A DNA stretch of 50,566 bases. It comes from Eubacteriales bacterium. GTDB taxonomy: Bacteria; Bacillota; Clostridia; Oscillospirales; CAG-272. Of the stretch, positions 25,551 through 42,300 are shown piece by piece. The DNA is taken from contig JAZTYY010000011.1 of the NCBI GenBank assembly GCA_045637205.1, positions 1 through 50,566 on the forward strand. Direction: 5' to 3'. A model generated the notes under the pieces. That model was not told where the DNA came from, did no database searches, and saw only the letters and a list, made by a program, of their open reading frames with translations. The position numbers were made by a program, and so were the translations under genes. Positions within the stretch are counted from its first letter, which is position 1. Each line of letters opens with the position of its first letter.

Positions 25551-25563
25551 TTGAGGAAATATT

Positions 25564-26385: not shown

Positions 26386-26402
26386 ATTAAAGGAGATTAA
26401 CT

Positions 26403-27278
26403 ATGGAAAAGAAATTTATATCCATTGGTAGAGAAGAAATAGCATATCTTGACGAAGGCAAGGGCGACGTTGTACTTATGGTACATGGAAATATGTCCTC
26501 CTCCGTTCACTATGAGCCCCTTATTACAAGAATTAAGGATAAATATAGATGCATAGCACTCGACCTCCGTGGATTTGGTGACAGTAGCTACAATAACCGT
26601 TTTGATACACTTGAGGAGCTTGCTGATGACGTTGCACTCTTCATTGGTGCATTGGGACTTGGTAGTGTTTACCTTGTAGGTTGGTCAAACGGTGGTGGCG
26701 TTTCCCTTAAGCTTTGCGCAAAATATCCCGAAAAGGTTAAAAAGTTCTTTGACATTGAGGGCGCAGGTCATAAAGGCTATCCCGTTTATCAAAAAGAAAA
26801 CTATAAATCAACAGGCAAGCCCTATGCTTGTAAAGAGGATATGGCAAAGGACCCCATTCAGGTGCTTCCTGCTCTTGCTTGTTTTGAAAAGGGTGACTTT
26901 GCAACTATGACAGCTATTTGGGATGCAACTATTTACACAGTAAATAAGCCCACAACTGAGCAAAACGAGATTTGGATGAATGAAACGCTTAAGCAGAGAA
27001 ACCTTGTTGACCTTGACTGGGCACTTGCAAATCTTAATATGTCCAACGAATATACACCTTACGGCCCAGGTGACGGTTCAATCAATGATATTCAGTGTCC
27101 CGTTGCACTTACAATGGCTGAAAAGGATATCGTAGTACCGGATTATATGGTTATGGATAATTTCTTCGCACTTGGTGCAAAGGCAACACTTCTTCCTTAT
27201 GAAAACTGTGGACACTCTCCTATGGTTGACTGTCCCGATAAGCTTGCATTTGACGTTGTAGAATTTTTCTCAAAATAA
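26403..27278 (+). CDS. Alpha/beta hydrolase resembling Bacillus-type PHB depolymerase PhaZ
   Basis: HGNMSSS, ALDLRGFGDSSYN, GWSNGGG, KGYP, CGHSP; by recall these match the B. thuringiensis intracellular PhaZ pattern. Confidence 0.7.
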   Translation: MEKKFISIGREEIAYLDEGKGDVVLMVHGNMSSSVHYEPLITRIKDKYRCIALDLRGFGDSSYNNRFDTLEELADDVALFIGALGLGSVYLVGWSNGGGVSLKLCAKYPEKVKKFFDIEGAGHKGYPVYQKENYKSTGKPYACKEDMAKDPIQVLPALACFEKGDFATMTAIWDATIYTVNKPTTEQNEIWMNETLKQRNLVDLDWALANLNMSNEYTPYGPGDGSINDIQCPVALTMAEKDIVVPDYMVMDNFFALGAKATLLPYENCGHSPMVDCPDKLAFDVVEFFSK

Positions 27279-27394: not shown

Positions 27395-28126
27395 ATGTCA
27401 AGGATAAGAAAGATATATTTTATTAGACTTATATTAAGAATTATTGTGCTTTTGGCAAGTATAGTTGTGTTTTTCGTTGCTCCTGAGCAATTTGATATAG
27501 TAAATGGTTGGAACTTTTTTGAAAAATTTTATATATTCCATCTTTTGTGGATTGCTTGGATTTTTGATATGGTTACTCAATTAATTCCGGTCAAAAACAT
27601 AGCTCTTGGCTCACAAAAAATCTTTAAGGAAAAATTCCGCCCTGCCTTACATAAGCTTCTTGATTGGGATAAGCTTAAGGATTATATTATAAAAACTAAC
27701 AAGGCAGCAGGGAAGGTTTTGATACTTTGGGCTTCATTTATCGCAATTCTTAGTGTTTTGAAGCTTTGTGGAGTCCTTAAAAATGAGCATTTGTTCCTCA
27801 TAAGCATAACATTTTACGTTTGTGATTTGATTTGCGTGCTTGTTTGGTGTCCGTTTAGACTTATGCTTGGAAACAAGTGCTGTACAACGTGTAGAATATT
27901 CAACTGGGATCATCTTATGATGTTTACACCAATGCTTTTTGTTGGTAGCTTTTTCTCAATTTCACTAATCATTTGGTCGGTAGTGGACTTTTTGATATGG
28001 GAAATTTGGATATATTTGCACCCTGAAAGATTTTGGGAGCATTCAAATATGGCACTCAAATGCTCTGAATGTACCGATAAATTATGCACTCAATATTGTA
28101 GAAAATTAAGAAAAAAAGCCGACTGA
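27395..28126 (+). CDS. Cys-rich integral membrane protein of unknown function
   Basis: AAGGAGG RBS; about five TM segments; WCPF, CCTTC and CxxCxxxxCxxxC motifs. Confidence 0.75.
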   Translation: MSRIRKIYFIRLILRIIVLLASIVVFFVAPEQFDIVNGWNFFEKFYIFHLLWIAWIFDMVTQLIPVKNIALGSQKIFKEKFRPALHKLLDWDKLKDYIIKTNKAAGKVLILWASFIAILSVLKLCGVLKNEHLFLISITFYVCDLICVLVWCPFRLMLGNKCCTTCRIFNWDHLMMFTPMLFVGSFFSISLIIWSVVDFLIWEIWIYLHPERFWEHSNMALKCSECTDKLCTQYCRKLRKKAD

Positions 28127-28141: not shown

Positions 28142-29677
28142 TTAAATAACTAAGAATCTATGTTTAACAATTTCCTCGTTTTCGGGGATGGAATTTTTTA
28201 ATTTGATGGCTTTTTGGGGTGTTCCATATTCCTTTGCGACACTCCAAATTGTTGCATTTTTATCGGGGTAGCAAAGCACAATTTCACTGTTTGATTTATT
28301 TAAAAATTCACTAAAAATCATCTCATCCAAAAGGTCAATTTTATCCTCGCAAACCAAATTTACGTTGAAATTTAATTCGGAGTCAACGTATAATTTTTCA
28401 CCGTCGTGACGCGCCTTTACTGATGAAATTTCACCGTTGGCAAACCACTTAATTGGCTTTTCAAAATCGATTTTTGCCCTGTTTTCAAGCTCATATTTTA
28501 CAGGAGAATTGAGTGAAAGTGAGGCATATTCACCATCCAAAAAATAGATTAATTGATACTCGTTATTCCCCTTAAAAATGCATTTTCCTCCCTCAGTTTC
28601 AAGCTCGAAAATATTGCAATTTCCAACTATATCAATGATTTTTGAATCTTGAGAAAGCTTAATATTTTCAAGGGAAAACACGTCGTTTTGAGTGAGATTT
28701 CCGTGTGCTGATCGCACGGCATTTAACACCGTAATTTCAGTAGTAGAGCACTCACAAAGCTTTTCGGTTGAGTATGCATCTGCTATATATTTTACAGCTT
28801 CATTTTTTTGAGCCTGAGCACAAAGTGAGAGGGTTAGTTCAAGCCCGATTGCATTATCATTAAAATCGAATTTTTCGTCATAGCAAATTCCATTTACAAA
28901 GCATTCAAAAAGGGAGTTAACACCCACGCATGAAAGCTCGCATGAGAAAGGAATTTTTCTTGTTATAATTTGAGGATGTGTGCTTTCGGTATCATTGCAA
29001 TAAAGAATTTTTGTCACCGCGTCACCGCGAACTTGTATTTTATCAATGCTTGGTACACACTCAATAACAGCAACATTTGAAGAGCAATCAATTATTCGAA
29101 TACTGTCATTTGAAGAGTCAAAGGTAACAGTGTCATTCAAAACTAAGGTTTTGTTTTCACTTCGTTTTGTGTTGATGGTGTTTTTTTCAAAAATGCGATT
29201 TTCTATAGTTGCCTTGCTGTGAGCGCCGACAAGATTTGGAGCATAGAGTGATGGTGAAAACGCCGCAATTTTGCAATTTAACTTTGCGCGAACGTTGAGC
29301 TTTCTCGGGCCTAAAACCCTTGTGTTAACACTTTCAGTTTTTATTGAGGGGAGCAGGGTGATATCGTCGTTATTGACGCTGTGAGAATTAAAATTTAATG
29401 AGGATGAGCAGCTGTATTTGTCTGAAAGAAGGGTGCAATAAAGTCCACCATCAGAGCCAAGATAGGTGATTTTATAGTTTATTTCACCACTTATTTCCGC
29501 ATTGCCGTTTGATATGTATTCATGCTGTGGTAAAACGATTGCACGGCTTGAGAGTAGTCTGCGAATTTCGGGTTGGTAATCGGGAAGGGAAAAATCCGAG
29601 TTAAGCTCCACTACTGATGCCTTGTCGCAAATAGGCATTTGTGGAAAATATCCAATGTTGTTTTGTGAGATTTCCAT
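28142..29677 (-). CDS. SPOCS/DUF3794-repeat plus LysM spore coat assembly protein (SipL-like)
   Basis: LPDYQPEIRRLL N-terminal motif, three repeated beta domains, C-terminal LysM-like TIWSVAKEY...N. Confidence 0.75.
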   Translation of the reverse strand: MEISQNNIGYFPQMPICDKASVVELNSDFSLPDYQPEIRRLLSSRAIVLPQHEYISNGNAEISGEINYKITYLGSDGGLYCTLLSDKYSCSSSLNFNSHSVNNDDITLLPSIKTESVNTRVLGPRKLNVRAKLNCKIAAFSPSLYAPNLVGAHSKATIENRIFEKNTINTKRSENKTLVLNDTVTFDSSNDSIRIIDCSSNVAVIECVPSIDKIQVRGDAVTKILYCNDTESTHPQIITRKIPFSCELSCVGVNSLFECFVNGICYDEKFDFNDNAIGLELTLSLCAQAQKNEAVKYIADAYSTEKLCECSTTEITVLNAVRSAHGNLTQNDVFSLENIKLSQDSKIIDIVGNCNIFELETEGGKCIFKGNNEYQLIYFLDGEYASLSLNSPVKYELENRAKIDFEKPIKWFANGEISSVKARHDGEKLYVDSELNFNVNLVCEDKIDLLDEMIFSEFLNKSNSEIVLCYPDKNATIWSVAKEYGTPQKAIKLKNSIPENEEIVKHRFLVI

Positions 29678-29846: not shown

Positions 29847-29875
29847 TTGCAAAAAAAGGGTATATGTGATATTAT
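29847..29875 (+). promoter_or_regulatory. sigmaA-type promoter of the acyl-lipid operon
   Basis: TTGCAA-17-TATTAT with extended TG. Confidence 0.6.
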
Positions 29876-29932: not shown

Positions 29933-31861
29933 ATGAAGCTAAACAACGTTCACGGCTTTAAAACGATTGAAGAATACATCGACTATAAGCTGAATGAATA
30001 TTCAAAAGACAAAAAAGATTTTGAAACTCTATTTAAATATATGTTTGACGAAACGGAGAACGTGATGGTTGAAACCTCTGACGGATACCGTGTCAAGAAG
30101 GTTACTTATGGTGAGTTCAAAAAAAGAATTTTTGAAATTACACCAACTGTTTGTGATTTTCTTGCTGACGTTCCTCAAGGGGAAATGGTTGGACTTTATA
30201 TGTCCAATTCTCCGGAGTGGATTCAAATCTTTTGGGCAATTCTTGCGTCAGGCTATTCACCACTCTTGATGAATACAAGACTTTCGGACGAAGTGCTTGA
30301 GGGGGTAATTAAAGATTACTCAATCAAATGCGTTATTTCGGATAGCAAGCGCTTCTCGGTAAAAACCGTTATGAAAGAGGAAGCAATCATACCATCCGAA
30401 AAGGAATACGTTGTGCGTCCATTTGGCAAAGAGGTAATCTTTATGTCATCGGGCACAACCAATAATGTTAAGCTCTGTGCTTATAATGGTGAGAACTTCT
30501 ATTATCAGGTTTGTGACAGCGTTCAAATTGTTAAGCAGTGCCCCAAAATTGCAGCTCATTATGAAGGTGAGTTAAAGCACTTGATGCTTTTGCCACTTTG
30601 CCACGTGTTTGCTTTTATGGCCGTGTACCTTTGGTTTGGATTTTTTGCAAGAACCTTTGTGTTCCCACGTGATTTGAATCCTGAGACTATTCAAAAAACG
30701 GTTAAGAAGCACAAAGTTACACATATTTTTGCAGTTCCTATGGTTTGGGAGGCAGTGCATAAAGCAACTGTGAGAAAAATCAAAGAGAAGGGCGAAAAAA
30801 CATATAATAACTTTTGCCGCGTTAGTGACAGGGTTAACAAAATGGGTTCACTTGGTGACGTGCTTGCTAAAAAAGCATTGTCCGAGGTTAGAGAGGGCTT
30901 GTTTGGTGAGAGCATTTGCTTCTTCATCACGGGTGGCAGCCATATCAAGACTGAAACCTTGAAATTCTTTAACGGAATCGGTTACCACTTGGTTAACGGC
31001 TTCGGCATGACCGAAATTGGTATCACCTCGGTCGAAAAAACAAATAAGAGAAAAATTGCAAACAAGGCTTCCATTGGTGCGCCGTTTGGATATACTGAAT
31101 ATTCAATTGACGCTGAGGGAAGATTGCTTGTAAGAGGAAAAACAAGAGCGTGTCGCATAATGCAAAACGGTGAAGCAATCGTTACAAATTATGACGAATG
31201 GTTCAATACCGGTGACATTATGAGATGCGAGGACGGAAGATATTACTTTGACGGCAGATCAGATGATCTTATCGTTGCTGAAGACGGTGAAAATCTTAAC
31301 CCCATCATTGCTGAAAGAGAGCTTCAGGTGGCTGGTGCCGATAGAGTTTGTATCGTTCGTTCTAACGAGGGAGTTACGGTTATTGCATCCGTGCCCGGCG
31401 TTTTCTCAAACGATAAATTGAAATTCATCTATGAGGAGTTGGATGGAAAAATTGTTGCCGCTAAGCTTAGTGGAACAATCAAAAAGGTCGTGTTCACTCA
31501 CGAATCCTTGTTGCCACCGGGTGAATTTAAATTAAGTCGTCGCAAAATTGCGAATAGACTTTCAAACGGAGATATTCGAATTTTTGACCCAAGACGTATT
31601 GAAGAGCACGTGGCGGAAATTTCAAGCGGAATTGAAGCCGAAATTGCTGAGTGCTTTGCAATAGCACTTGATAAGGATTCTTCAAGCATTGCGCTTGAAA
31701 GTGATTTCTTCCGTGATTTAGAGGGTACGAGTCTTGATTACTTCACACTTTTGGGATTAATCAAATCTCGTTTTGGAATTGATGTAATTGCAAATGACGG
31801 TGCAAGGATTGCAACTGTTAAGGCATTTGCGGAATACATAAAAAGCCAGTTGACAAAATAA
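29933..31861 (+). CDS. Adenylate-forming (fatty acyl ligase-like) enzyme fused to a C-terminal carrier domain
   Basis: SSGTT, GFGMTE, FNTGD, GRSDD; C-terminal DFFRDLEGTSLDYF phosphopantetheine site; start ATG 29933. Confidence 0.85.
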   Translation: MKLNNVHGFKTIEEYIDYKLNEYSKDKKDFETLFKYMFDETENVMVETSDGYRVKKVTYGEFKKRIFEITPTVCDFLADVPQGEMVGLYMSNSPEWIQIFWAILASGYSPLLMNTRLSDEVLEGVIKDYSIKCVISDSKRFSVKTVMKEEAIIPSEKEYVVRPFGKEVIFMSSGTTNNVKLCAYNGENFYYQVCDSVQIVKQCPKIAAHYEGELKHLMLLPLCHVFAFMAVYLWFGFFARTFVFPRDLNPETIQKTVKKHKVTHIFAVPMVWEAVHKATVRKIKEKGEKTYNNFCRVSDRVNKMGSLGDVLAKKALSEVREGLFGESICFFITGGSHIKTETLKFFNGIGYHLVNGFGMTEIGITSVEKTNKRKIANKASIGAPFGYTEYSIDAEGRLLVRGKTRACRIMQNGEAIVTNYDEWFNTGDIMRCEDGRYYFDGRSDDLIVAEDGENLNPIIAERELQVAGADRVCIVRSNEGVTVIASVPGVFSNDKLKFIYEELDGKIVAAKLSGTIKKVVFTHESLLPPGEFKLSRRKIANRLSNGDIRIFDPRRIEEHVAEISSGIEAEIAECFAIALDKDSSSIALESDFFRDLEGTSLDYFTLLGLIKSRFGIDVIANDGARIATVKAFAEYIKSQLTK

Positions 31862-31890
31862 ATCAACGGCTGAACAAAAGAGAGGATATT

Positions 31891-33798
31891 ATGGTTAAAT
31901 CTTTAGACAAAAAATGGAAAGAGTTATTGTTTGCGTTTTCTGGCTTTGGTCCCAACTTCCTTATGATTTTGATGGGCTCATATTATTCAGACGCGCTAAA
32001 CCCTGCTGCACTTGAGTCAGGTGAACAGTTCCAGGCTATTATGCCCGGAATATGCCTTATAACTCCTGCACTTTTCCCAATTCTTTTCGCGCTTGGCAAG
32101 ATATTTGACGGTATTATTGACATTCCCTTTGCGCACATTACTGATACACTTTCAACAAAATGGGGACGTCGTCGTCCTGCAATCGCAGTTTGCACAGTTC
32201 CCATGATTATAAGCTACCTTTTGTGTTGGATTCCAATTGCAGGAATTCCCGTTGAAGGAGCTGCAGGTGATCAAGCCAGATTGATTAATACAATTTGGGT
32301 TAGTATTTTCAGCATAATTTTCTTTGCAACCTACACAATGTGTCTTATCGCATACTACGGTTCATTCTCAAGCGCTTGTTCTGATGAGCCCCAAAGACTT
32401 CGTGTTTCAGGTTACAAATCATTCTTTGACACAATTACATATTGTGTAGTATATGCACTTGTTCCCGTAATTCTTAGTGGTGCAAAAATTCAAATTAATA
32501 CACTTGTATTCATTTGCTTGCCTATAATGCTTACAATGATTATTCCGCTCTTCCTTATCAAAGAGGGTGAAAAATACGGTTACCCTGAAAATGAGGGTAT
32601 GAGCTCTGAAAAGATAAGCATGAAGGAAAGTATTCGTCTTACATTCCAAAACAAGATTTTCAGACGTTGGCTCTACGTTAACTGCTGTACATTCTTTGGA
32701 TTGCAGATGTTCTTGTCATCAATGAATGGCTTGATTATCGGTGGTATGGGTCTTGATGGCTTGCAAATGGCAATTCTTAATACTTGTGCATTCGGCCCCG
32801 TACCCGTTATGCTTTATTTCTTCAATAAGGCAAAGGCGCGTTATGGTGTTCGCAAGACTTACCAAAGCTGCTTGATTATGTTTGCAGTTGCTATTATGTC
32901 ATTCTTCTTGGGTTCAAGATTCGTTCTTGGTGAAGGAAACGTAATGGCTAAGATGATAATTGGTATTATTGGCGGTGTTTGCGGAAGCTGGTCAATCGGA
33001 GTATTCTTTATGATGCCATATCTTGCACCTGCACAAATTTCAAGTGTTGAAGAAAAGCTTACAGGTAGAAATCACTCAGCAATGTACTTTGCAGGTAATG
33101 CACTTGCAACATCAATCGTTGGTGCAATTTCAGGTAACCTTGTTTACGAATATATCAAAAACGTATTCTTCTCAAAGGAGCATGGCTTTGTTTGGGCTAC
33201 ATCCTCTACAGAAGCATATGAGCTTTTGTACGGTGCTTCTGCTACTGATGAGGCAGTTGCTACATCAATATTCAATTTTGGAAACCTTTTGGTTCCTTTC
33301 ATTGTTTCAATCACTTGTCTTTTGGGTGTTGCTCTTGCGTTTAAGCTTCCCAAGGATTTCACACCATCCATTTTGGCTGAGGAATATAAGAAGCTTGATC
33401 CCAACGTTGACGTAAGCGTTCTTGAAAAAGAAGAACCCCCCAAGGATCGCACCGAAGTTATCTTCGTTCAAGTTGGACTTTCAGTGCTTTCAGGCTTTAT
33501 TTTTGCATTTATTTGGACAGGAATGCTCATCAAAGCACTCAAGGAATTTAAATCAAAATTCAAGACATTTGTACCATTCTTACTTTCATGCTTCGTTCCA
33601 TTTGCTGCTATTTACTTCAACTTGAAGTTTAGACAAATCATTATTGATGAGGCAGAGAAGTGTGGAGCAAATGTTAAAATTAATAAGATCGTATTGATTA
33701 TTACATCCATCGTGTTCCCAATTCTTCCTTTGAACCTTGTTTCTTTGGCATTGTTGCAGAACGGAATTAATAAGCTTTACATTGCCAAGGATAACTAA
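31891..33798 (+). CDS. MFS transporter, glycoside-pentoside-hexuronide (MelB/MFSD2-like) type, with extra C-terminal membrane domain
   Basis: KIFDGIIDIPFAHITD...KWGRRRP GPH signature; 635 aa with about three additional TMs. Confidence 0.8.
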   Translation: MVKSLDKKWKELLFAFSGFGPNFLMILMGSYYSDALNPAALESGEQFQAIMPGICLITPALFPILFALGKIFDGIIDIPFAHITDTLSTKWGRRRPAIAVCTVPMIISYLLCWIPIAGIPVEGAAGDQARLINTIWVSIFSIIFFATYTMCLIAYYGSFSSACSDEPQRLRVSGYKSFFDTITYCVVYALVPVILSGAKIQINTLVFICLPIMLTMIIPLFLIKEGEKYGYPENEGMSSEKISMKESIRLTFQNKIFRRWLYVNCCTFFGLQMFLSSMNGLIIGGMGLDGLQMAILNTCAFGPVPVMLYFFNKAKARYGVRKTYQSCLIMFAVAIMSFFLGSRFVLGEGNVMAKMIIGIIGGVCGSWSIGVFFMMPYLAPAQISSVEEKLTGRNHSAMYFAGNALATSIVGAISGNLVYEYIKNVFFSKEHGFVWATSSTEAYELLYGASATDEAVATSIFNFGNLLVPFIVSITCLLGVALAFKLPKDFTPSILAEEYKKLDPNVDVSVLEKEEPPKDRTEVIFVQVGLSVLSGFIFAFIWTGMLIKALKEFKSKFKTFVPFLLSCFVPFAAIYFNLKFRQIIIDEAEKCGANVKINKIVLIITSIVFPILPLNLVSLALLQNGINKLYIAKDN

Positions 33799-33800
33799 TT

Positions 33801-34439
33801 ATGTTAGCGTTTTTAGGAAACTGGTTCGTTAAAATTACGGGATATCCCTTTCATCTTCTTCTTTTTCGAACCAAGGTATATTATGAAGATAAATCAGTTC
33901 AAGATAGACGCATAAAGGGCAAGGCAATAGTTGTTTGTAATCACAATAACTTGTTTGATGTGGCAATTTTGCTTTTCGTGTTTTGGAGACGCACCTTGCG
34001 TTGTGCCGTTGCTGAATTGATGTATAATAAGAACGTGTTTATGACATTCGTTCTTAAGATGCTTGGCTCGGTTAAGGTTGATAGAGATAGTCATGATTTC
34101 TCATTCTTGACAAAGCTCAAGAAGATACTTGATAAGGGTGGGGTTGTTGAAATTTATCCCGAATCACGTTTACCGCAGCCCGGGGATGTGCTCCCGTTAG
34201 AATTTAAGCCAAGTTACGTATATTTGGCACTTGAAAGCGGTGCACCAATCATTCCCATTTACAGTAATGCAAAGATTTTTTCTAAAGAGAGAGAAAGAGT
34301 CATCATCGGCAAGCCAATTTACGTTGACGATTTGTATGATTCAAATCTTTCAGAAAAGGAAAACATAAACAAAATAAATACATACGTTAGGAGTAAGGTA
34401 ATTGAACTTGGCAAAGAACTCGAAAAACAGCAAGGCTAA
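33801..34439 (+). CDS. PlsC-family lysophospholipid acyltransferase
   Basis: NHNNLFD (HxxxxD), VDR, IYPESR, FKP. Confidence 0.85.
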   Translation: MLAFLGNWFVKITGYPFHLLLFRTKVYYEDKSVQDRRIKGKAIVVCNHNNLFDVAILLFVFWRRTLRCAVAELMYNKNVFMTFVLKMLGSVKVDRDSHDFSFLTKLKKILDKGGVVEIYPESRLPQPGDVLPLEFKPSYVYLALESGAPIIPIYSNAKIFSKERERVIIGKPIYVDDLYDSNLSEKENINKINTYVRSKVIELGKELEKQQG

Positions 34440-35085
34440 AAAAGGCTTGTTTTACAACTTCTGGTATGATTTTGTTAAGGTAACGGGATGTATTCCTGCA
34501 CTCCTTTGGTGGAGACCTAAGGTTTACCGTCCCTACGGAACAAAAACTCCAAAGGGAAGGGTGCTTGTATCCGCTAACCACAGAAGCTTTTTTGATCCAA
34601 TAATTCTTCTTATTACGTTTCCGTTCAGAAGATTACATTCCCTTGCTACAAAGGATCTATATAAAACAAAATTTATGGCTGCATTTCTAACTCAAATGCA
34701 TTGTATCATGGTTGATAAGCAGAACTTCACTCTTTCTGCATTCCATGACGTTGTAACAAGACTTCAAGAGGAGAAAATGGTTGTTATTTTCCCTGAGGGT
34801 GGTCTTAATGAGGACTCAGAGGATACTATCAAAACCTTCAAGTCAGGCGCAGTGCTTATGGCACATAAGGCAAACGCGCCACTTCTTCCCGTTTATATTG
34901 TTAAGCGCAAAAAATGGTACCATAGACAAAGAGTTGTTATTGGTGAGGTTTTTGACGTAAGAAAAGAGCTTGGCGATAGACCTTCAATTGAACAATTGAA
35001 TAATGCAAGTGACACTTTGAGAAAAATGGAGCTTGACCTTCAAGAATATTTTGATTCGCTCCCAATTAGTAAAAAAGTAAAATAA
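34402..35085 (+). CDS. Second PlsC-family acyltransferase (start uncertain)
   Basis: NHRSFFD, IFPEGG, FKSGAVLMA. Confidence 0.85.
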   Translation: MNLAKNSKNSKAKKGLFYNFWYDFVKVTGCIPALLWWRPKVYRPYGTKTPKGRVLVSANHRSFFDPIILLITFPFRRLHSLATKDLYKTKFMAAFLTQMHCIMVDKQNFTLSAFHDVVTRLQEEKMVVIFPEGGLNEDSEDTIKTFKSGAVLMAHKANAPLLPVYIVKRKKWYHRQRVVIGEVFDVRKELGDRPSIEQLNNASDTLRKMELDLQEYFDSLPISKKVK

Positions 35086-35113
35086 TTAATTTTTCAAAGG
35101 AGAATTGAAAATT

Positions 35114-36625
35114 ATGAATAGAAGATTTGAAAAGTATACAGATGCTGAAACATTTTCAAAAATTGTTGATTACGCTAACGTAACAGAAATGTGGAGTCAC
35201 AGCGTAGCTACTTACCCCAACAACATTGCTATCGTTGATGGTGCTGAGTACACATACACAGCACTTGATTCATCAGTTGCAGGATTTAGAACAATCTACC
35301 GTAACAACGGTGCAACTCCCGGCTCTTTGATTGCCATTCTTTGCCCCAACTCCGTTGGTTTTGTTAAGGCATTTTTGGCAGCATCAACATATGGACTTCC
35401 CGCAGTGCTTTTGCCTGCACACCTCGATTCTAACACAGTTTTCGGAATCGCGTATAAATTTGGACTTAAGGCAATTGTTTATGATGAATCCCTTGCTGAA
35501 AAGGTATCCGTAGTTAAAGAAAGACTTCCTCAGGTTGCTTTGATTAGCTCCGCTGAAGAATGTGAAGAAAAGACACCCGCTATTCCCGTTCCCACAGAAG
35601 CTCCTTGTGTATTCATCTTTACAGGTGGTACAACAGGTAAGAGCAAGGGCGCTCGCCTTAGTCAGAGAGCTGTAATGGCAGGTACAAAGAACGGTTGCTA
35701 TGGTATCAAGAAGATTTTCGAAGAAAGATATTTGCTTGTTCTTCCTCTTACACACGTATTCGGTCTTATCCGTAACCTTATGACATGTCTTTACACAGGT
35801 AGTGCAATGTACATTTGCCGTAACAATAAGGATATGTTCCGTGATATTGCAATGTTCAAGCCCACAATACTTGTTTTGGTTCCTGCACTTGCTGAAATGG
35901 CACTTAACCTTTCACGTCAGTTCGGCAGAAACATGCTTGGTGAGGATATGAAAACAATCATTTGCGGTGCTGCTCCTGTTCCTCCTTATCTTGTAAAGGA
36001 ATATGATAAGCTCGGCATTGCGCTTCTTCCCGGCTACGGACTTACAGAATCAGCAAACCTTGTTTCAGGTAACCCCGAAGCACTTGCAAAGCCCGGCTCT
36101 GTTGGTCTTATTTACGGTGGCATGGATTACAAGATTGTTGACGGTGAGCTTTGGCTCAAGGGCATTAATATGATGGATGGCTATGCTACTCCCGAAGATA
36201 ACGCAACAGCTTATGAGGACGGATATTTCAAGACAGGCGACCTTGTAAGAATTGACGAAGAGGGCTACCTTTATATCACAGGTAGAATTAAAGAAATCAT
36301 CGTTCTTTCCAACGGTGAAAACGTTTCTCCTGCAGAGCTTGAGGTTAAATTTTATGACCTTGACGTTGTTCAGGATTGCTTGGTTTACGACGTCAACGAA
36401 AATGGTAAGGAAATGCTTGTTCTTGAGGTTCTTCCCAGAATGAGCTCAGTAAAGGCACTTGGTATTGAAGATCTTCACGCATACCTTAAGGAAGAGGTTG
36501 CAAAGATTAACGAAACATTGCCTTCATTTGAAAGAATAAATAAAATTGTCATCAGAGATACGGACTTTGTTCGTACACCTGCGATGAAGATTGCGAGAAA
36601 TTTAAATGGTAATGTCAAGAACTGA
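35114..36625 (+). CDS. Long-chain acyl-CoA/acyl-ACP synthetase (AMP-binding)
   Basis: FTGGTTGKSKG, GYGLTE, FKTGD, GRIKEII...NGENVSP. Confidence 0.88.
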   Translation: MNRRFEKYTDAETFSKIVDYANVTEMWSHSVATYPNNIAIVDGAEYTYTALDSSVAGFRTIYRNNGATPGSLIAILCPNSVGFVKAFLAASTYGLPAVLLPAHLDSNTVFGIAYKFGLKAIVYDESLAEKVSVVKERLPQVALISSAEECEEKTPAIPVPTEAPCVFIFTGGTTGKSKGARLSQRAVMAGTKNGCYGIKKIFEERYLLVLPLTHVFGLIRNLMTCLYTGSAMYICRNNKDMFRDIAMFKPTILVLVPALAEMALNLSRQFGRNMLGEDMKTIICGAAPVPPYLVKEYDKLGIALLPGYGLTESANLVSGNPEALAKPGSVGLIYGGMDYKIVDGELWLKGINMMDGYATPEDNATAYEDGYFKTGDLVRIDEEGYLYITGRIKEIIVLSNGENVSPAELEVKFYDLDVVQDCLVYDVNENGKEMLVLEVLPRMSSVKALGIEDLHAYLKEEVAKINETLPSFERINKIVIRDTDFVRTPAMKIARNLNGNVKN

Positions 36626-36863
36626 AATTAAGGAAAAATTAAAGGATGTCATGAATATGGCAGCGCCTGCGGGCGATGTTGACCTTGAAAACATTGATGA
36701 AAGCTCAAAGTTGGTCGATGACCTTGGTCTTACATCCGTAGGAATACTTTACATAGTAATTGCGATTGAGGAGTTTTTTGATATAAGATTTGACGATGTA
36801 GGTTTTGCTGATTTCAAAACATTTGGAGACGTTATTGATTATATTGAAAGAAAAGTACAGTAA
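36606..36863 (+). CDS. Acyl carrier protein (start 36606 or 36612)
   Basis: Small and acidic; DLGLTSVG...IEEFFDI...TFGDVIDYI. Confidence 0.88.
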   Translation: MVMSRTEIKEKLKDVMNMAAPAGDVDLENIDESSKLVDDLGLTSVGILYIVIAIEEFFDIRFDDVGFADFKTFGDVIDYIERKVQ

Positions 36864-37873
36864 TGAAATGGTCATATATAGAGCCGTCATATGGTGACAT
36901 GATTCGCGTATCGGCGGGGACTATCTATCATTTTGGAATTTATGTTTCAGATGACGAAGTAATTCAATTCGGGTTACCCCCCTCTCGAAGAGGGGGACAG
37001 CCCGACTCTGAAATAGAGGTCATGAGCGCAACCATTGATGATTTTCTTGCAGGCGGATTTCTTGAAGTGTGTGTCTTTGATAAAAAAGAGAAGAAAAATA
37101 ATCGCACTCCCGATGAAATAGTTAAATATGCAAGAAGTAAGATCGGTACACGCGGATATCATATCCTCTATAATAACTGCGAGCATTTTGCAAACGAATG
37201 CGTAACGGGTGTCCACATTTGCCGTCAGGCTGAGGATGTACGTGAGCTTTTTAAAAAAATGCCCGTTGTACACGTCTATATAGCTTCATTGCCTCAAGAT
37301 GAGCCCATTGGCAAACTTGAATGCAGGGAGAGAATGGACGAAATAGCTTCAATCTCAAATGAGAAGGTTAAAAGAGAAAAATACTTTGTGTGGAAGCTCT
37401 TGTGCTATGCCTTGGAGCGTAGCTTTGGAAAGAGAGGCAATAAGCTTTCTTTCAAGAAGGAGTCAAATGGCGCTTGGTCAGTAAATGACGTTGAAATATC
37501 AATTTCACACAGTGGAAATGCTTTGGCAGTTGCGGTTTCACGCGGAGCCGTAGGCATTGATATTGAACGCGTTCACACACCAAGGGCTGAAAGAATGGCT
37601 GAATTTGTTATGAGTGAAGCCGAGCTTGAAGAGTTTTCTCTTATACCCGATGAGAAAAAAGAGGAACGCCTTATCGAGATATGGACACTTAAGGAGGCAA
37701 TCTTTAAGTCCCAAAAGCTTGATAGATTTATTCCTAGGGAGCACGATATAGCAAGTGCAACCTATAAAACGAATAGCGTTATTATTGACGGTGAAAAATA
37801 TGTTTGGTCGGTAGCGACAAAAACCCCCGAAATTGTTCGCGTTTTTACCGATATCGACTTAACAAAAAAATAA
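36863..37873 (+). CDS. LRAT/PLAAT-like (permuted NlpC/P60) domain fused to an Sfp-type 4'-phosphopantetheinyl transferase
   Basis: N-terminal GDMI...YHFGIYV...NNCEHFANEC; C-terminal ISISHSG, VGIDIE, WTLKEAIFK. Confidence 0.82.
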   Translation: MKWSYIEPSYGDMIRVSAGTIYHFGIYVSDDEVIQFGLPPSRRGGQPDSEIEVMSATIDDFLAGGFLEVCVFDKKEKKNNRTPDEIVKYARSKIGTRGYHILYNNCEHFANECVTGVHICRQAEDVRELFKKMPVVHVYIASLPQDEPIGKLECRERMDEIASISNEKVKREKYFVWKLLCYALERSFGKRGNKLSFKKESNGAWSVNDVEISISHSGNALAVAVSRGAVGIDIERVHTPRAERMAEFVMSEAELEEFSLIPDEKKEERLIEIWTLKEAIFKSQKLDRFIPREHDIASATYKTNSVIIDGEKYVWSVATKTPEIVRVFTDIDLTKK

Positions 37874-38989
37874 ATGAAAAAGGGGTTCTTTATGAACCAA
37901 GAAAATTTTAATCAAAAAAACTTTAAGCCTTCTGCAAAAGCGAAGCGAGTGGCATTTATTATTGCGGGCACACTTGTTGGAATAAGCGTTGCTTCAGTTA
38001 TAACCACTGTATGCATGTACGATTCGTTTTTTGTAAGGTATGAACGTCCCAATTATGATCTCACTCCGGGACTTTACTGCTATGAGAGAATTCAAGACGA
38101 TTTGAAAAGGGAAGAGATAAAAATTCCGTCGGGAGATAATAAGCTTCAGGGCTATTATTATCCAGCCGAAAATGCCCGTGGACTTGCGGTTTTAGCGCAT
38201 GGCTTCCATGCAGGCGCTGATGATTATCTTCCATTGATCGAGGCCATTGTTAACAGAGGATATTCTGTTTTGACATATGACGTAACAGGAACATACTCCT
38301 CAGGCGGTGATGACGGAATCGGAATGTGTCAACCGTTGGTTGATATTGACAACGTTTTGAATTTTGCCAATAGGGAAGAGCCATTCAAAAATATGCCCAA
38401 GGTAGTTATTGGACATAGCTTGGGTGGATATGCGGCATCATCCGTGCTTGCACTCCATCCCGAAATCAAGGCTGCAGCTCTTATTGCGCCAATGAATAAT
38501 GCCGCAACGATTATGCTTGAAAAGGCTGAGCAATACGTTGGCGAGGTTGCAAACACAGCAAAGCCGATTTTTGATGCTTATCAAGAGATTCTATTTGGTA
38601 ATTACGTTAATTATAACGGTGTAATTGGAATTAACTCAACCGATGCCCCTGTACTCATTGCACAGGGCGTTGACGATACCGATATTACACCTGAAGGGCA
38701 GTCTATAACTGCTTTTATGAGTCAAATTACTAATCCAAACGTTCAAGTTTATTGGAAGGGTGGGCTTCAAGGCACTCACACAGGCATTTGGCACTCTGTT
38801 GAAGCTGAAGCATATAAGCGCTCTATAGAAAATCGAATCAAGGAAATGGAAAAGGAACTTGATAGAAAGCTTACTGACAGTGAGCTTGCTTGCATATATG
38901 ATTCAATTGACCATAGACTTTACAGTGACGTAAATATTGAATTGGTTGATTTGATGATTCAAACCTTTGATAAGGGTATTGCAAAATAA
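37874..38989 (+). CDS. Membrane-anchored alpha/beta hydrolase (lipase/esterase; start may be 37892)
   Basis: N-terminal TM segment, AHGF, GHSLGG, later Asp and His (GTH) triad candidates. Confidence 0.82.
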   Translation: MKKGFFMNQENFNQKNFKPSAKAKRVAFIIAGTLVGISVASVITTVCMYDSFFVRYERPNYDLTPGLYCYERIQDDLKREEIKIPSGDNKLQGYYYPAENARGLAVLAHGFHAGADDYLPLIEAIVNRGYSVLTYDVTGTYSSGGDDGIGMCQPLVDIDNVLNFANREEPFKNMPKVVIGHSLGGYAASSVLALHPEIKAAALIAPMNNAATIMLEKAEQYVGEVANTAKPIFDAYQEILFGNYVNYNGVIGINSTDAPVLIAQGVDDTDITPEGQSITAFMSQITNPNVQVYWKGGLQGTHTGIWHSVEAEAYKRSIENRIKEMEKELDRKLTDSELACIYDSIDHRLYSDVNIELVDLMIQTFDKGIAK

Positions 38990-39009: not shown

Positions 39010-39477
39010 ATGTATTGCAACAAATGTGGAAAACAAATTGAATCGGGCATTGTTTGTCCCGAATGCGCTATTGCTGAGTATGAAGAAACACATTTTGGTA
39101 AAAAAAGCACTGAGGAGCTTAATCCCACGTATGACGCTTCAACTGCATATTACGTTGAGCCACATAATAGAATGTATGGCTTTAAATTGGCACTTGCAGG
39201 TCAAATTTTAGCGGTTGTTGGTATTTTTGTGAGTTATTTTGCTATAATTGCAAATTTAATTAGCTCTGGAACAGGCTTTGTATTTGCACTTGTTTCAGTT
39301 GTATTTGTTGTTTTGCCCATGATTATGGGTATATATTCAATACAAACCTTTAAAGAGAGAAAGCACCTGCGTAAGAAACCGATAGCAACGTTGGTTCTTG
39401 GTATATCAACGCTCACAACACTTCCAATCTCTGCAATTTATACTTTAATTGCATTTGTATTAGTCGGTGCATTATAA
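39010..39477 (+). CDS. Zinc-ribbon plus 3-TM membrane protein, array copy 1
   Basis: CNKC...CPEC, NRMYGF, KPIATLVLGI; GGAGGT RBS. Confidence 0.85.
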   Translation: MYCNKCGKQIESGIVCPECAIAEYEETHFGKKSTEELNPTYDASTAYYVEPHNRMYGFKLALAGQILAVVGIFVSYFAIIANLISSGTGFVFALVSVVFVVLPMIMGIYSIQTFKERKHLRKKPIATLVLGISTLTTLPISAIYTLIAFVLVGAL

Positions 39478-39500
39478 AAACACATTAAGGAGGATTTACT

Positions 39501-40037
39501 ATGTATTTTTGCAACAAATGTGGAAAACAAATCGAATCGGGTATTATTTGTCCCGAATGTGCTATTGCTGAATATGAAAAGGCACAATTAAATAAGATAT
39601 CAAACGTGCCCATGCCCGAAGCTCCCGTGTGTGAGCCTCAAGCTCCTGTATGTGAGCCTCAAACACCTGTGTATGAGCCCGTAGTAACTCATGTACCTCA
39701 GCCTGAAATTCCTGCTCCCGTGCAGCATAGTGATCTTCGTGATCCCAACAATAAAAAGTTTGGCTTCACAAGAGCATTATTGTCAACAATTTTTGGTGGA
39801 GTGGCATTTATTATTTCGTTTATTTCTCCCTTTATTGAAGATGCAATTGGCTTTATATTAATTCTCCCATTGTTGGTAATTTCAATAATCTTTGGTATAA
39901 AATCTATTGTAGTTTTCAAGAAGAGAAAGAACCTTCCCGCAAAGCCTATTGCCACATTGATTCTTGGCATAGTTGGTCTTGCAATTTCAGGAACCTTGAT
40001 TCTTGAATTTTTATCTGAATTTCTTTACTTATTTTAA
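39501..40037 (+). CDS. Zinc-ribbon plus 3-TM membrane protein, array copy 2
   Basis: CNKC...CPEC, Pro-rich linker, NKKFGF, KPIATLILGI. Confidence 0.85.
   Translation: MYFCNKCGKQIESGIICPECAIAEYEKAQLNKISNVPMPEAPVCEPQAPVCEPQTPVYEPVVTHVPQPEIPAPVQHSDLRDPNNKKFGFTRALLSTIFGGVAFIISFISPFIEDAIGFILILPLLVISIIFGIKSIVVFKKRKNLPAKPIATLILGIVGLAISGTLILEFLSEFLYLF
39621..39680 (+). repeat. 21-bp coding tandem repeat (about 3 copies)
   Basis: APVCEPQ-APVCEPQ-TPVYEP. Confidence 0.8.
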
Positions 40038-40100
40038 TATTGTATTTTAAAATTATATTTACAAATTGTTTTTAATTGTGGTATAATATAGGAGAGTTCT

Positions 40101-40583
40101 ATGTACTGTAGTAATTGTGGTAAACCGATTGAATCGGGAACAAAATGTTATGATTGCTTAAAGGCCACATATCAACCTGCACAAAAGAAATATATTCGTC
40201 CAAAATATAATTTTGAACCTGACCCCGATAATGCAATGTATGGCTTTTTTAAGGCATTGGTTTCTACCATTTTGGCGGTTATGGCAGGAGTTTGGACATA
40301 CATTGTTGCTGATCATATCAGCAGTTCAACGGTTGAGCAATACGGAAAAGTGTACGTTATGTTAGATCCCAATTCAACTTTCATTTCTTTATTAGTTCCG
40401 ATACCGTTTATAATTGTTTCTATTATCTTTGGTATAATTTCAATCAGAACGTTTGCAAGAAGAAGAGTAACATGTGAAAAGCCCATTGTTACGTTGGTGC
40501 TTGGCATTGTTGGTATTTGCATTTCCGCCTTGTCGTTGTGCTTTGTGATTCCCGTAATAAACCAAGTTGTTCAATTTGTTTAA
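40101..40583 (+). CDS. Zinc-ribbon plus 3-TM membrane protein, array copy 3
   Basis: CSNC...CYDC, NAMYGF, KPIVTLVLGI; possible own promoter TTTACA-18-TATAAT at 40058-40087. Confidence 0.85.
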   Translation: MYCSNCGKPIESGTKCYDCLKATYQPAQKKYIRPKYNFEPDPDNAMYGFFKALVSTILAVMAGVWTYIVADHISSSTVEQYGKVYVMLDPNSTFISLLVPIPFIIVSIIFGIISIRTFARRRVTCEKPIVTLVLGIVGICISALSLCFVIPVINQVVQFV

Positions 40584-40609
40584 AAATAAACACAGTTAAA
40601 AATATCATT

Positions 40610-41358
40610 AAAAGGAGACATATTATGTATTGCAACAAATGTGGAAAGTACATTTCTCAAGGAACAAAATGTGACGACTGTGCAAGAGCTGAATACTATG
40701 CTTCTCAAGCACAGCAGGCTCAGCAGTCCTCATATAATTATGCTAATGGCAACCCCTACGCTCGTCCTAATTATAACTGTGAGCCCGAGCCTAAAAATAG
40801 AATGTATGGCTTCGGTAAGGCTCTTACTTCAACCATTTTAGGATTTGTTGGTTACATTTGGACATATGTTTCATTTGTTTTGTCAGTTGATTTGTATTAT
40901 GGAATTGAAGAATCAGCAATTGTGCTTTCACTTATGGCGCTTCCATTTATAATCATTCCTATCATATTTGGTATTTCATCTATCAAAGTATTTATGAGAA
41001 GAAAAGCTACTTGTGCCAAACCAATACCTACCTTGATTCTTGGTATTGCAGGTCTTTCACTTGGTGGTATAGCTGCTTTGTTCGAAATGCTTTTGTTTTT
41101 TGCTATGACAACCATGTAAAAAATAAAAAGGAGACATATTATGTATTGCAACAAATGTGGAAAGTACATTTCCCAAGGAACAAAATGTGACGACTGTGCA
41201 AGAGCTGAATACTATGCTTCTCAGACGCAGCAGGCTCAGCAGCCCTCATATAATTATGCTAATGGCAACCCCTACGCTCGTCCCAATTACAACTGTGAGC
41301 CCGAACCTAAAAACAGAATGTATGGCTTTGGTAAAGCTCTAACATCAACAATTTTAGG
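40610..41358 (+). repeat. ~230-bp near-identical direct repeat (40610-40842 and 41126-41358)
   Basis: RBS, zinc ribbon and linker of copies 4 and 5 are almost identical (offset 516 bp), then diverge. Confidence 0.9.
40625..41119 (+). CDS. Zinc-ribbon plus 3-TM membrane protein, array copy 4
   Basis: Start moved to ATG 40625 behind AAGGAG; CNKC...CDDC, NRMYGFGKAL, KPIPTLILGI. Confidence 0.85.
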   Translation: MYCNKCGKYISQGTKCDDCARAEYYASQAQQAQQSSYNYANGNPYARPNYNCEPEPKNRMYGFGKALTSTILGFVGYIWTYVSFVLSVDLYYGIEESAIVLSLMALPFIIIPIIFGISSIKVFMRRKATCAKPIPTLILGIAGLSLGGIAALFEMLLFFAMTTM

Positions 41359-41638
41359 CTTTATTGGATTTATCTGGTCCTATATAGCATTTGGTGAAGC
41401 CACAAACTATTGGGGAGATGAAGAATTGGCACTCGTGCTCATCTTGATGGGACTTCCTTTAATCATCATTCCTTTGATTTTCGGAATTCAGTCAATCAAG
41501 GTATTTACAAGAAGAAAGAATTTATCTGCAAAGCCTATTGCAACTCTGATTCTTGGAATTTCTGGTCTTGTAATGTCAGGATTTGGTGCTTTGATTTCTC
41601 TCAGTTCGATGATGTCAATTTTTCCTTATCTTTATTAA
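41141..41638 (+). CDS. Zinc-ribbon plus 3-TM membrane protein, array copy 5
   Basis: N-terminal half nearly identical to copy 4; different TM/loop region. Confidence 0.85.
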   Translation: MYCNKCGKYISQGTKCDDCARAEYYASQTQQAQQPSYNYANGNPYARPNYNCEPEPKNRMYGFGKALTSTILGFIGFIWSYIAFGEATNYWGDEELALVLILMGLPLIIIPLIFGIQSIKVFTRRKNLSAKPIATLILGISGLVMSGFGALISLSSMMSIFPYLY

Positions 41639-41742
41639 GATAGGGAGCAAGACCTGACGGTTTTGCAAATTTAATAAGATAATAAGCCCTTTGAGTAAGG
41701 ACTATATTATAAAAAATAATATGAAAAAAAGGAGAATTTGTT

Positions 41743-42300
41743 ATGTTCTGTAGAAAATGCGGAAAACAAATCGCAGAGGGAACAATGTGTGATGATTGCG
41801 CAAGAGCTGAATTCTATGCACAGCAGCCCCAGCAGCCCCCTCAGCAACCCAACTATTCACAACCCAACTATTCACAGCCTTATGCTCAGCCCAATTACGC
41901 TCAGCCCCAGGCACAGCCCAAGCCTCAGTATACACGTGAGCCCGATCCTCAAAATAAGATGTACGGCTTCGGCAAGGCATTGACAGGTACAATCTTGGCA
42001 TTTGTCAGCATTATTATTCCTTATCTTTCATTGGGAGTCATGTTTGATTCACCTGAACTTGGTATCGTTTTAATGCTTATGGCACTTCCTTGTGCAATTA
42101 TCGGTCTTGTCTTCGGTATTGGCTCTATTAAGACATTTATGAGAAGAAAGAACGGCTGCGCTAAGCCTATTGCTACATTGATTCTCGGTATTGCGGCTCT
42201 TTCATTGGCAGCATGCATACTTCTTGGCTATGTTATTGGTATTTTCATGGGATTAGGTCTCTTGGGAAGCGGTTTTGAAGATATTTTATATTATCTTTAA
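41743..42300 (+). CDS. Zinc-ribbon plus 3-TM membrane protein, array copy 6
   Basis: CRKC...CDDC, QPNYS-type Q/P repeats, NKMYGFGKAL, KPIATLILGI. Confidence 0.85.
   Translation: MFCRKCGKQIAEGTMCDDCARAEFYAQQPQQPPQQPNYSQPNYSQPYAQPNYAQPQAQPKPQYTREPDPQNKMYGFGKALTGTILAFVSIIIPYLSLGVMFDSPELGIVLMLMALPCAIIGLVFGIGSIKTFMRRKNGCAKPIATLILGIAALSLAACILLGYVIGIFMGLGLLGSGFEDILYYL

Follow-up and report, generated by a model that had tools for sequence, protein, structure and literature searches.

A conserved cassette for probable acyl carrier-dependent lipid acylation in gut Clostridia, linked by gene context to exogenous fatty-acid use

Why would a bacterium in which no ketosynthase can be found keep, in one gene block, two acyl-AMP ligases, two carriers and three acyl-transfer domains? 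The block lies at 29933-38989 of the window, by which we mean the whole stretch of DNA analyzed here, 50,566 nucleotides of contig JAZTYY010000011.1 from an Eubacteriales bacterium, and it consists of eight genes, g1 to g8, all on the plus strand. It is a real, conserved and so far undescribed cassette, probably for lipid acylation dependent on acyl-acyl carrier protein (ACP), and it is tied by gene context to the use of exogenous fatty acids. The same gene order is found in about two dozen independent loci of gut and rumen Clostridia, and the grouping of the genes is therefore beyond chance. As to what the cassette does, we consider the chances about even that it is an accessory, self-contained system resembling Aas/LplT, built from different parts, which salvages exogenous fatty acids or lysolipids; its physiological role would be membrane-lipid scavenging or repair in Clostridia that lost fatty-acid synthesis. 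Salvage is favored by the co-conservation of the genes, by linkage to fakA and fakB in 10 loci, by the predominance of genomes without a ketosynthase among those that carry the cassette, and by a host without type II fatty-acid synthesis (FASII), PlsX, PlsY or FakB.

Domain content of the eight genes

A first-pass annotation of this DNA had described eight co-oriented, tightly spaced genes with these domains, and the description holds: open reading frame (ORF), Pfam and NCBIfam checks agree with one another and with the coordinates, and the catalytic motifs are intact. The distances between neighboring genes, from g1 to g8, run from -38 to +29 nt. Every domain needed to pass an acyl group from ligase to carrier to acyltransferase is present with its catalytic residues conserved, and the enzyme that would build the chain is absent. 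The same annotation had remarked on the missing ketosynthase within the operon; a PF00109 search now extends this to the rest of the host genome, which measures 1.59 Mb and is 99.97% complete. No condensation domain was matched in any cassette gene or in any of the variants scanned. We assume that g1 to g8 are carried on a single transcript. A promoter-like site upstream of g1 (29847-29875, plus strand; TTGCAA, 17 nt, TATTAT, with TG) was obtained by consensus scan only, and since the 53 promoter-consensus matches in the region are not above those of shuffled sequence (45.8 expected), it is a candidate promoter and nothing firmer. The transcription unit probably extends beyond 38989, because six co-oriented zinc-ribbon genes follow at 39010-42300 without a terminator-like site between.

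The first gene, g1 (29933-31861, 642 aa), starts at the ATG at 29933, preceded by a GAAGGGAG ribosome-binding site, and fuses an acyl-AMP ligase (PF00501, 121 bits) to a carrier domain (PF00550, 27.1 bits against a cut-off of 20.8). Its orthologues, at 29-66% identity, hold the same position in about two dozen loci. Similarity to solved ligases is weak (Cfl, 7a9j, and FadD13), and in a language-model protein atlas g1 groups with unnamed AMP-binding plus PP-binding proteins of Bacillota. The second acyl-AMP ligase, g5 (35105-36625, 506 aa, with an alternative ATG at 35114), matches PF00501 at 188 bits, and its nearest solved chains are 8wev/8weu, oxalate-CoA ligase, FadD13 and MenE. It overlaps by 20 nt the gene for a free ACP, g6 (36606-36863, 85 aa), which scores 29.6 bits for PF00550 against the cut-off of 20.8 and whose Ser44, in the motif LGLxS, is invariant in 13 of 13 orthologues. 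The host genome encodes three PP-binding domains in all; g6 is among them, and there is one further stand-alone ACP.

Both g3 (33801-34439, 212 aa, HNNLFD) and g4 (34402-35085, 227 aa, HRSFFD) are PlsC-type acyltransferases, with PF01553 scores of 65 and 76 bits, respectively, and the NHxxxxD motif is invariant across 17 aligned acyltransferase sequences. The start of g4 is uncertain, the length given here being counted from a TTG at 34402, with 34408 and 34447 as further candidates; in some of the variants described below (C and E) g4 is fused to g3. Neither protein reaches the cut-off of TIGR00530 for 1-acylglycerol-3-phosphate acyltransferase (102.95; g3 53.9 bits, g4 87.2 bits), and the canonical PlsC of the host likewise falls just under it at 96.1 bits. 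Orthologues of g3 conserve VDR and YPE[SGA]R, and those of g4 have VD[KR] and an FPEG followed by G, S, K or T; the Arg after the motif is present in g3 and in the canonical host PlsC and absent from g4. In PlsC-type enzymes the Arg residues of these motifs touch the acceptor phosphate, and since g3 keeps the Arg of YPE[SGA]R and g4 does not, the two enzymes probably serve different acceptors or positions, to judge by their motifs.

In g7 (36863-37873), an LRAT/PLAAT-like domain (about residues 1-130; PF04970, 73.4 bits, cut-off 24.3) is fused to an Sfp-type phosphopantetheinyl transferase (PPTase; about residues 135-336; PF01648, 46.4 bits, cut-off 25). In sequence searches of the PDB the N-terminal domain matches human PLAAT2, 3 and 4 (PLAAT3/HRASLS, 4dot, E 7e-7) and the C-terminal half matches Sfp. 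Residues H23 and N105-C106-E107-H108-F109 are invariant in 24 aligned fusion homologues, as are the PPTase residues D233, W274, K277, E278 and K282, with E235 near-invariant. When 11 LRAT domains from all variants are compared, H23, N105, C106, E107 and F109 remain invariant and H108 is near-invariant (the sequence is NCEDF in locus L030). Position 35, which we take to be the place of the third catalytic His of PLAAT3, is Q, H or A across variants, and this His is thus unconserved. Animal PLAATs have a C-terminal membrane anchor; a hydropathy scan found no transmembrane (TM)-like segment in g7, whose C-terminus is a PPTase and not a membrane anchor. The predicted complex of g7 residues 1-132 with g6 scored 0.20 against a mark of 0.32, for this single pair with no control pairs alongside, a score that speaks neither for nor against a contact.

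The fusion itself is not confined to this genome. A search for it returned 816 database proteins at E <= 0.001, and the best 120 of the 816 all carry both domains; two have source names, neither of them functional. In metagenomes it forms more than 100 sequence clusters. Within the host, g7 is the sole PF01648 match, and a gene of its type is likewise the sole PPTase in 3 of 5 other operon genomes. It fits these observations that the fused PPTase makes the cassette self-sufficient where carrier-protein machinery is scant or absent, an idea that draws on genome G010, which has FASII and in which the LRAT stands alone with no PPTase attached. A precedent for a Cys enzyme supplied by an ACP is given by BtrH: the portions of a survey of papain-like enzymes used here count LRAT among the lipid-metabolizing families and describe BtrH as an ACP-dependent acyltransferase of the same superfamily (PMC10318531).

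The transporter g2 (31891-33798, 635 aa) belongs to the GPH/MFS_2 type (PF13347, 126.6 bits against a cut-off of 27; MFS_1 is borderline, 33.6 against 33.4) and carries a C-terminal extension of about 150 aa with three TM-like segments. It scores 50.3 bits, short of the cut-off of 231.35, for NCBIfam TIGR00792 (gph) and matches none of the NCBIfam LplT or Aas-fusion models, and a PDB sequence search matched no chain, either with g2 singly or with a profile of 11 orthologues. The best Foldseek matches of its predicted model (mean pLDDT 72) are MelB (TM-score by target 0.76) and MFSD2A (0.70-0.75), and the top 10 PDB matches are all one or the other. MFSD2A is a lysolipid transporter. All 11 of the 11 orthologues keep the Asp residues D73 and D77 (FDGIIDIP); by likeness and not by alignment, these may correspond to the helix-2 acidic pair (DxxxD) for cation coupling in MelB and MFSD2A, an equivalence which, if correct, would suggest import. 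The last gene, g8 (37874-38989, 371 aa), encodes a membrane-anchored alpha/beta hydrolase (Hydrolase_4 and Abhydrolase_1) with GHSLG at residues 180-184; behind an N-terminus rich in Lys and Arg, residues 24-49 form a TM-like segment. The g8 orthologues lie downstream of g7 in loci L001, L004, L006 and L040.

Recurrence, variants and chromosomal setting of the cassette

Do the genes stay together in other genomes? The first-pass annotation had called for a neighborhood search on this point, and the same order does recur in the two dozen or so loci mentioned above. With one genome scanned for each species, eight loci emerged, in genomes labelled Clostridia or Eubacteriales from sheep colon, water-buffalo caecum and other samples: four have g1-g7 in order at 42-83% identity, two are cut by a contig end, and two hold the PPTase only. 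A metagenome scan gave 68 loci, and among the 26 of at least 5 kb, which were examined, 16 have further cassette genes beside the LRAT gene, 9 show a weak LRAT-like match only and 1 gave no hit. Neighborhoods in an order-wide genome sample supplied six additional loci. The order g1-(g2)-g3-g4-(g5)-g6-LRAT is found in L001, L002, L005, L006, L029, L030, L031, L040, L046, L050, L052, L054, L056-L060, L063, L064, L070, L099, L101 and L104, and a minimal form, MFS_2-g1-g3, in L100, L102 and L103. The genes flanking the cassette vary between loci.

Variant A, g1-MFS-g3-g4-g5-ACP-LRAT(-PPTase), is that of the 29933-38989 locus and of L001, L002, L005, L006, L029, L040, L052, L059 and L063, and variant B (L046, L056) is the same minus the MFS gene, with the PPTase as a separate gene in L056. 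In variant C (L057, L058, L060, L064), g1, a fused g3-g4, ACP and LRAT, with no g5 or MFS, are followed by hydrolase-DegV-FakA-hydrolase; variant D (L070) has an extra ligase-like gene, an MFS gene and a third PlsC-type gene. In variant E (L030, from genome G010) g3 and g4 are fused, the ACP is preceded by a radical-SAM activase and a glycyl-radical enzyme of 728 aa, and the LRAT has no PPTase. Variant F (L099, L101, L104) reads g1-g3-g4-g5-ACP-LRAT/PPTase-hydrolase-DegV-MFS_2-FakA-hydrolase, ending in a Zn-ribbon protein in L101 and L104 only, and the minimal form, variant G (L100, L102, L103), reads DegV-FakA-MFS_2-g1-g3(-hydrolase). DegV/FakB and FakA thus adjoin the cassette in 10 loci (L057, L058, L060, L064, L099-L104), an adjacency confirmed by Pfam in L057, L101, L102 and L103, with FakA confirmed in L099, and DegV/FakB and FakA have the MFS_2 gene beside or between them in variants F and G.

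The invariant core of these arrangements is the ligase-carrier fusion together with a g3-type acyltransferase. A second acyltransferase, ACP and LRAT are a frequent addition to it, and the second ligase, MFS transporter, PPTase, hydrolases and Zn-ribbon proteins are optional, g8 being missing from many variants. The proposal of the first-pass annotation that two ligase-to-carrier-to-acyltransferase channels run in parallel agrees with the modular variants: the ligase-carrier and one PlsC-type enzyme stand alone in some, the second PlsC, ACP and LRAT are an add-on in others, and one variant has no second ligase. In variant E the radical-SAM activase and the short glycyl-radical enzyme (L030:13668-16678) lie between the second ligase and the ACP. 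The nearest solved relative of the glycyl-radical enzyme is the B12-independent glycerol dehydratase 1r8w (E 2e-50), and its scores are far under all NCBIfam equivalog cut-offs; the insertion is a hint that a lipid or head group carrying a diol may undergo radical chemistry.

The six genes behind g8, d1 to d6 (39010-42300, plus strand), encode tandem membrane-protein paralogues of 155-185 aa. Each combines a CxxC...CxxC zinc ribbon at its N-terminus with a linker rich in Q and P and with three TM-like segments. They align with d1 at 36-41% identity with 32 invariant columns, and each has its own Shine-Dalgarno sequence, the start of d4 being most likely at 40625. One or more homologues of this type trail the cassette in at least 11 other loci, among them L001, L002, L004, L006, L031, L034 (3 copies), L040, L052 and L101, and in L056 two Zn_Ribbon_1 genes follow it. 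In the language-model atlas d5 groups with Zn_Ribbon_1 and DUF4190-type small membrane proteins to which no function is assigned.

A check for mobile-element signatures showed no GC anomaly, and a scan of 13 flanking ORFs gave no integrase. Its site is marked upstream by a 243-aa membrane protein followed by a SipL-domain gene (28142-29677), and in a sister species, G254 (locus L105 on C1, the same contig as L007), the same site holds a different cargo and a phage-type integrase. This cargo includes a 694-aa ORF, with a Cthe_2159 domain in its L007 counterpart, a protein of 2638 aa that Pfam does not match, and a PPTase standing on its own, which shares 57% identity with g7 over the C-terminal half of the latter; the integrase comes after the PPTase. 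The 243-aa protein (27395-28126) is a multi-pass membrane protein with CTTC and CSEC motifs and no family match, conserved beside the SipL-domain gene in the sister species at 69% identity. Further upstream, at 24246-27278, lie an acetyl-CoA hydrolase/transferase and two more alpha/beta hydrolases, one of which reaches the NCBIfam cut-off for intracellular short-chain-length polyhydroxyalkanoate depolymerase (303.6 against 300).

Lipid genes of the host genome and its relatives

If the cassette receives its acyl chains ready-made, what does the host retain of its own lipid synthesis? The first-pass annotation had suggested looking for FASII and plsXY genes, and the host genome indeed has no match to PF00109 (ketosynthase), PlsX (PF02504), PlsY (PF02660) or DegV/FakB (PF02645); the same profile searches were positive in control genomes. 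A tblastn search found no FakA in it either. The host keeps CdsA, a canonical plsC in a cmk-plsC operon, and three FadD-type ligases. It also encodes three long PF01553 proteins of 400-463 aa (C65:6924-8315, C26:14356-15708 and C57:18665-19867, all on the minus strand), each with a weak domain match and no closer family, one of which adjoins an MFS_1 transporter; this domain makes them candidates for the glycerol-3-phosphate acyltransferase that is otherwise missing from the genus.

The comparison can be widened to the order. No ketosynthase was found in any of 5 other operon genomes, for which completeness is not reported. Among 201 genomes of the order, in which a g1-type gene was called at E <= 1e-40, a ketosynthase is present in 102 and unmatched in 99, and a g1-type gene is present in 21. 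Ketosynthase-positive genomes make up 3 of the 21 carriers of a g1-type gene versus 99 of the 180 non-carriers, which is an association and not a statistical test, since the counts span related genomes and 8 of the 21 carriers come from one family. The three positive carriers are G010, G122 and G183, the last two having weak g1 matches and a different architecture; of the 17 carriers whose g1 match is full-length and reaches at least 33% identity, only G010 has a ketosynthase. The 201 genomes, carriers included, have PlsX in 196 cases and PlsY in 191, and it seems common in this order of gut and rumen bacteria for FASII to be lost while the acyl-phosphate route is kept.

The genus of the host is different again. 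Its sample comprises 22 species, of which only 7 combine a completeness of 90% or more with a contamination of 5% or less. PlsX and PlsY are each found in 1 of 22, both in the same genome, which is 6% contaminated, and DegV is found in 2 of 22. No convincing ketosynthase was found in the 22 species, three of which give partial hits of 19-21 bits. None of the canonical bacterial routes into the synthesis of fatty acids and phosphatidic acid appears to be present in the genus. A full LRAT-PPTase gene is present in 2 of the 22 species, and in a sister species that is 99% complete (G228) neither g5 nor g7 has an orthologue; even in its own genus, then, the cassette is accessory. These counts also dispose of three broader proposals. 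That the cassette replaces PlsY is rejected, given that PlsY is kept by nearly all carriers of the order sample and that the PlsY-less genus is mostly without the cassette. That the ligase-carrier protein and g3 replace PlsX and ACP for sn-2 acylation is rejected as a general rule, PlsX being retained by carriers too. That the cassette is the universal answer to the loss of FASII is rejected, because 81 of the 99 ketosynthase-less genomes of the order sample have no g1-type gene.

Known systems and the possible role of the cassette

How might the parts work together? The roles offered here take activities, substrates and directions from family knowledge and gene context, beyond the domain content and motif conservation observed. 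The PPTase half of g7 would prime the carrier domain of g1 and the free carrier g6; g1 would adenylate a fatty acid and load its own carrier, and g5 would do likewise for g6. The acyltransferases g3 and g4 would move acyl groups from the carriers to hydroxyls of glycerolipid acceptors, and g2 may import or flip the acceptor, a lysolipid or a glycosyl or glycerol head-group precursor. Facing outward, g8 may free fatty acids or lysolipids from external esters. The LRAT Cys106 and His23 would form an acyl-thioester, and the domain could then act as a third acyltransferase or a phospholipase A at the membrane, or clear mis-acylated carriers.

Such an arrangement is reminiscent of Aas/LplT, by which Gram-negative bacteria re-acylate lysophospholipids: a transporter of the MFS class is encoded together with an acyl-ACP synthetase of the AMP-forming kind and an acyltransferase of PlsC type (HX4D). 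By gene content variant G, with its MFS_2 transporter, ligase-carrier and PlsC-type enzyme, would be a one-to-one functional analogue. The proteins g3, g4 and g5 match PRK08633 and PRK06814, which model MFS-PlsC-ligase fusions, below threshold (45-101 bits against 1221-1349); with PRK08043 included, scores are 19-101 bits against cut-offs of 886-1349, and the equivalog level is unreached. Unlike Aas/LplT, the cassette has an MFS_2/GPH transporter and not one of the LplT type, its carrier is dedicated, whether fused or free, and not the housekeeping ACP, and its ligase and acyltransferase are separate proteins, two of each, accompanied by LRAT, PPTase, esterase and Zn-ribbon proteins. According to the sections of PMC11416262 drawn on here, Gram-negative bacteria are the only ones in which LplT-Aas has been identified; no genes are assigned there to the uptake and acylation of lysolipids in Gram-positive bacteria, and a streptococcal activity of this kind is reported with no transporter assigned.

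Other routes share single features with the cassette. In the parts of PMC10146087 consulted, FakAB together with PlsX is named as the way in which Gram-positive bacteria generally use exogenous fatty acids. The FakA/FakB-PlsX-PlsY-PlsC route has the same presumed purpose as the cassette and is its neighbor in 10 loci, but Fak activates by phosphorylation, whereas the cassette would do so by adenylation onto a carrier thiol, and the host has no DegV, PlsX, PlsY or FakA. The AasS enzyme of the Vibrio harveyi type is a ligase of the AMP-forming class by which ACP is charged with exogenous fatty acids, according to the portions used of PMC12086093 and PMC11271967. AasS loads the housekeeping ACP that feeds FASII, whereas the carriers of the cassette are private and there is no FASII, and the list of 18 PDB chains that g5 matches at E <= 1e-20 includes no AasS chain. 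A fatty-acid-amide pathway of gut Clostridia also employs a ligase and a carrier protein on ready-made fatty acids; it is nonribosomal peptide synthetase-like and depends on a stand-alone condensation domain, OaaC, in the account given in the sections of PMC13310621 considered, whereas the cassette has no such domain and has PlsC-type and LRAT-type transferases instead. Counterparts of the eukaryotic Lands-cycle proteins are all present (PLAAT/HRASLS/LRAT, acyl-CoA synthetase, AGPAT-type acyltransferase, MFSD2A), but the acyl donors of the cassette would be carrier thioesters and not CoA esters, and its LRAT has no TM-like segment and is fused to PPTase. The resemblance is one of parts, not of pathway descent.

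The first-pass annotation had not recognized the operon as a described cluster, and we too found no published description of it in the literature searched, which lay outside subscription journals and supplements; a 2026 survey of gut lipid genes does not describe it in the parts covered (PMC13761379). Nor did we find a studied bacterial precedent for an LRAT/PLAAT protein wired to ACP and fused to PPTase, or for the divergent transporter of MFSD2A/MelB fold.

Could the product be something other than a repaired membrane lipid? The first-pass annotation had offered, next to salvage, a dedicated route to a multiply acylated lipid. The comparative evidence favors salvage, and a stronger form of it, replacement of PlsX and PlsY, was put to the test and is unsupported. 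A biosynthetic route devoted to a specialized lipid with several acyl groups, or to a lipo-conjugate, such as a triacylated phospho- or glycolipid, a lipid of the N-acyl-phosphatidylethanolamine type, or an acylated amine or amino acid, is in our estimate the next most likely reading, though well short of even chances. The two carriers would each supply a different acyl group, the LRAT would account for a third acylation or an N-acylation, and the MFS protein would export or flip the product. Three acyl-transfer domains and two carriers exceed the needs of simple re-acylation, g3 and g4 differ at the FPEG/YPExR motif, and the cassette is an accessory one in a variable region, with accessory genes that differ by variant, including the glycyl-radical enzyme and activase of G010. 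Its own PPTase and carriers recall secondary-metabolite clusters, and, as the consulted parts of PMC10318531 relate for BtrH, papain-like Cys enzymes that accept acyl groups from ACP are known. However, the cassette has no conserved head-group enzyme, be it glycosyltransferase, aminotransferase or condensation domain, and the FakA/FakB adjacency and the bias toward FASII-less genomes point to acyl uptake, although a special end product would be compatible with that. Export by the transporter also sits poorly with the GPH-family members known to us, which are cation-coupled importers.

Three further readings are less probable still. As a Gram-positive counterpart of LplT-Aas working as a bacterial Lands cycle, the cassette would use an MFSD2A-family symporter to take up host or dietary lysolipids, two private ligase-carrier pairs and two PlsC-type enzymes would re-acylate them position by position, and the LRAT-PPTase would prime the carriers and shuttle acyl groups between phospholipid esters and the carrier thiol without ATP; we regard this more specific scheme as speculative and rather doubtful. 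That the operon is the main phosphatidic-acid route of its host, g1 and g5 making acyl-carrier thioesters with which g3 and g4 would acylate glycerol-3-phosphate at sn-1 and sn-2, seems improbable to us. The host has no PF00109, PF02504, PF02660 or PF02645 match, yet has CdsA and hence needs phosphatidic acid, g7 is its sole PPTase, and g3 shares two Arg-bearing motifs with the canonical PlsC. But 21 of the 22 species of the genus are without PlsX, 21 without PlsY and 20 without DegV, and yet only 2 carry the LRAT-PPTase, so another route must serve the genus; the cmk-plsC plsC, the three 400-463-aa PF01553 proteins and the three FadD-type ligases are other candidates in the host, and elsewhere the cassette coexists with PlsX and PlsY. 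Finally, it is very improbable, in our view, that the cassette handles plant hydroxycinnamates or other non-fatty acids, the esterase freeing ferulate or coumarate from glycosides imported by the GPH protein, the ligases activating these acids and the acyltransferases esterifying glycerol-type acceptors with them. Cinnamoyl and chlorogenic-acid esterases are among the best solved relatives of g8, the best solved relative of g5 is deposited as a feruloyl-CoA synthetase (8wev), GPH transporters are typically glycoside carriers, and related loci are labelled herbivore gut, as sequencing runs sharing part of the stretch are labelled gut or bovine gut metagenome, by label only. The same chain is, however, also deposited as a fatty-acyl-CoA synthase (8weu), the E-values are modest and FadD13 and MenE score similarly, lipids are specifically indicated by the FakA/FakB adjacency, by the PLAAT-like domain and by enzymes of the PlsC type, and many variants manage without g8.

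Salvage of exogenous fatty acids or lysolipids remains the reading we prefer, and a number of findings weigh against it. Beyond the relatedness of the carriers noted above, G010 holds a cassette variant alongside FASII, most carriers outside the genus keep PlsX and PlsY, and the scarcity of the LRAT-PPTase in the genus, with the absence of g5 and g7 from G228, makes the cassette dispensable for bulk lipid synthesis. Among the proteins, g1 is remote from every characterized ligase, and 8wev and 8weu, nearest to g5, are one protein deposited under two names, feruloyl-CoA synthetase and fatty-acyl-CoA synthase. The fold search could not tell MelB from MFSD2A for g2, leaving sugar-type and lysolipid-type transport unseparated, and GPH transporters are mostly glycoside carriers. 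The nearest solved chains to g8 are cinnamoyl esterases and cutinases, and the hydrolases of the Fak-linked variants are not orthologous to g8.

What, then, does the cassette mean for these bacteria? Roughly half of the order sample (99 of 201 genomes) is without a ketosynthase and must live on foreign fatty acids, and the way in which such bacteria acquire and place acyl chains bears on their growth needs, their cultivation and their competition for dietary lipid, as well as on host lipids such as lysophosphatidylcholine. If the Lands-cycle scheme were true, FASII-less gut Clostridia would build and remodel their membranes wholly from foreign lipid. The cassette offers a concrete set of eight to fourteen genes with which lysolipid uptake and acylation in Gram-positive bacteria may be tested.

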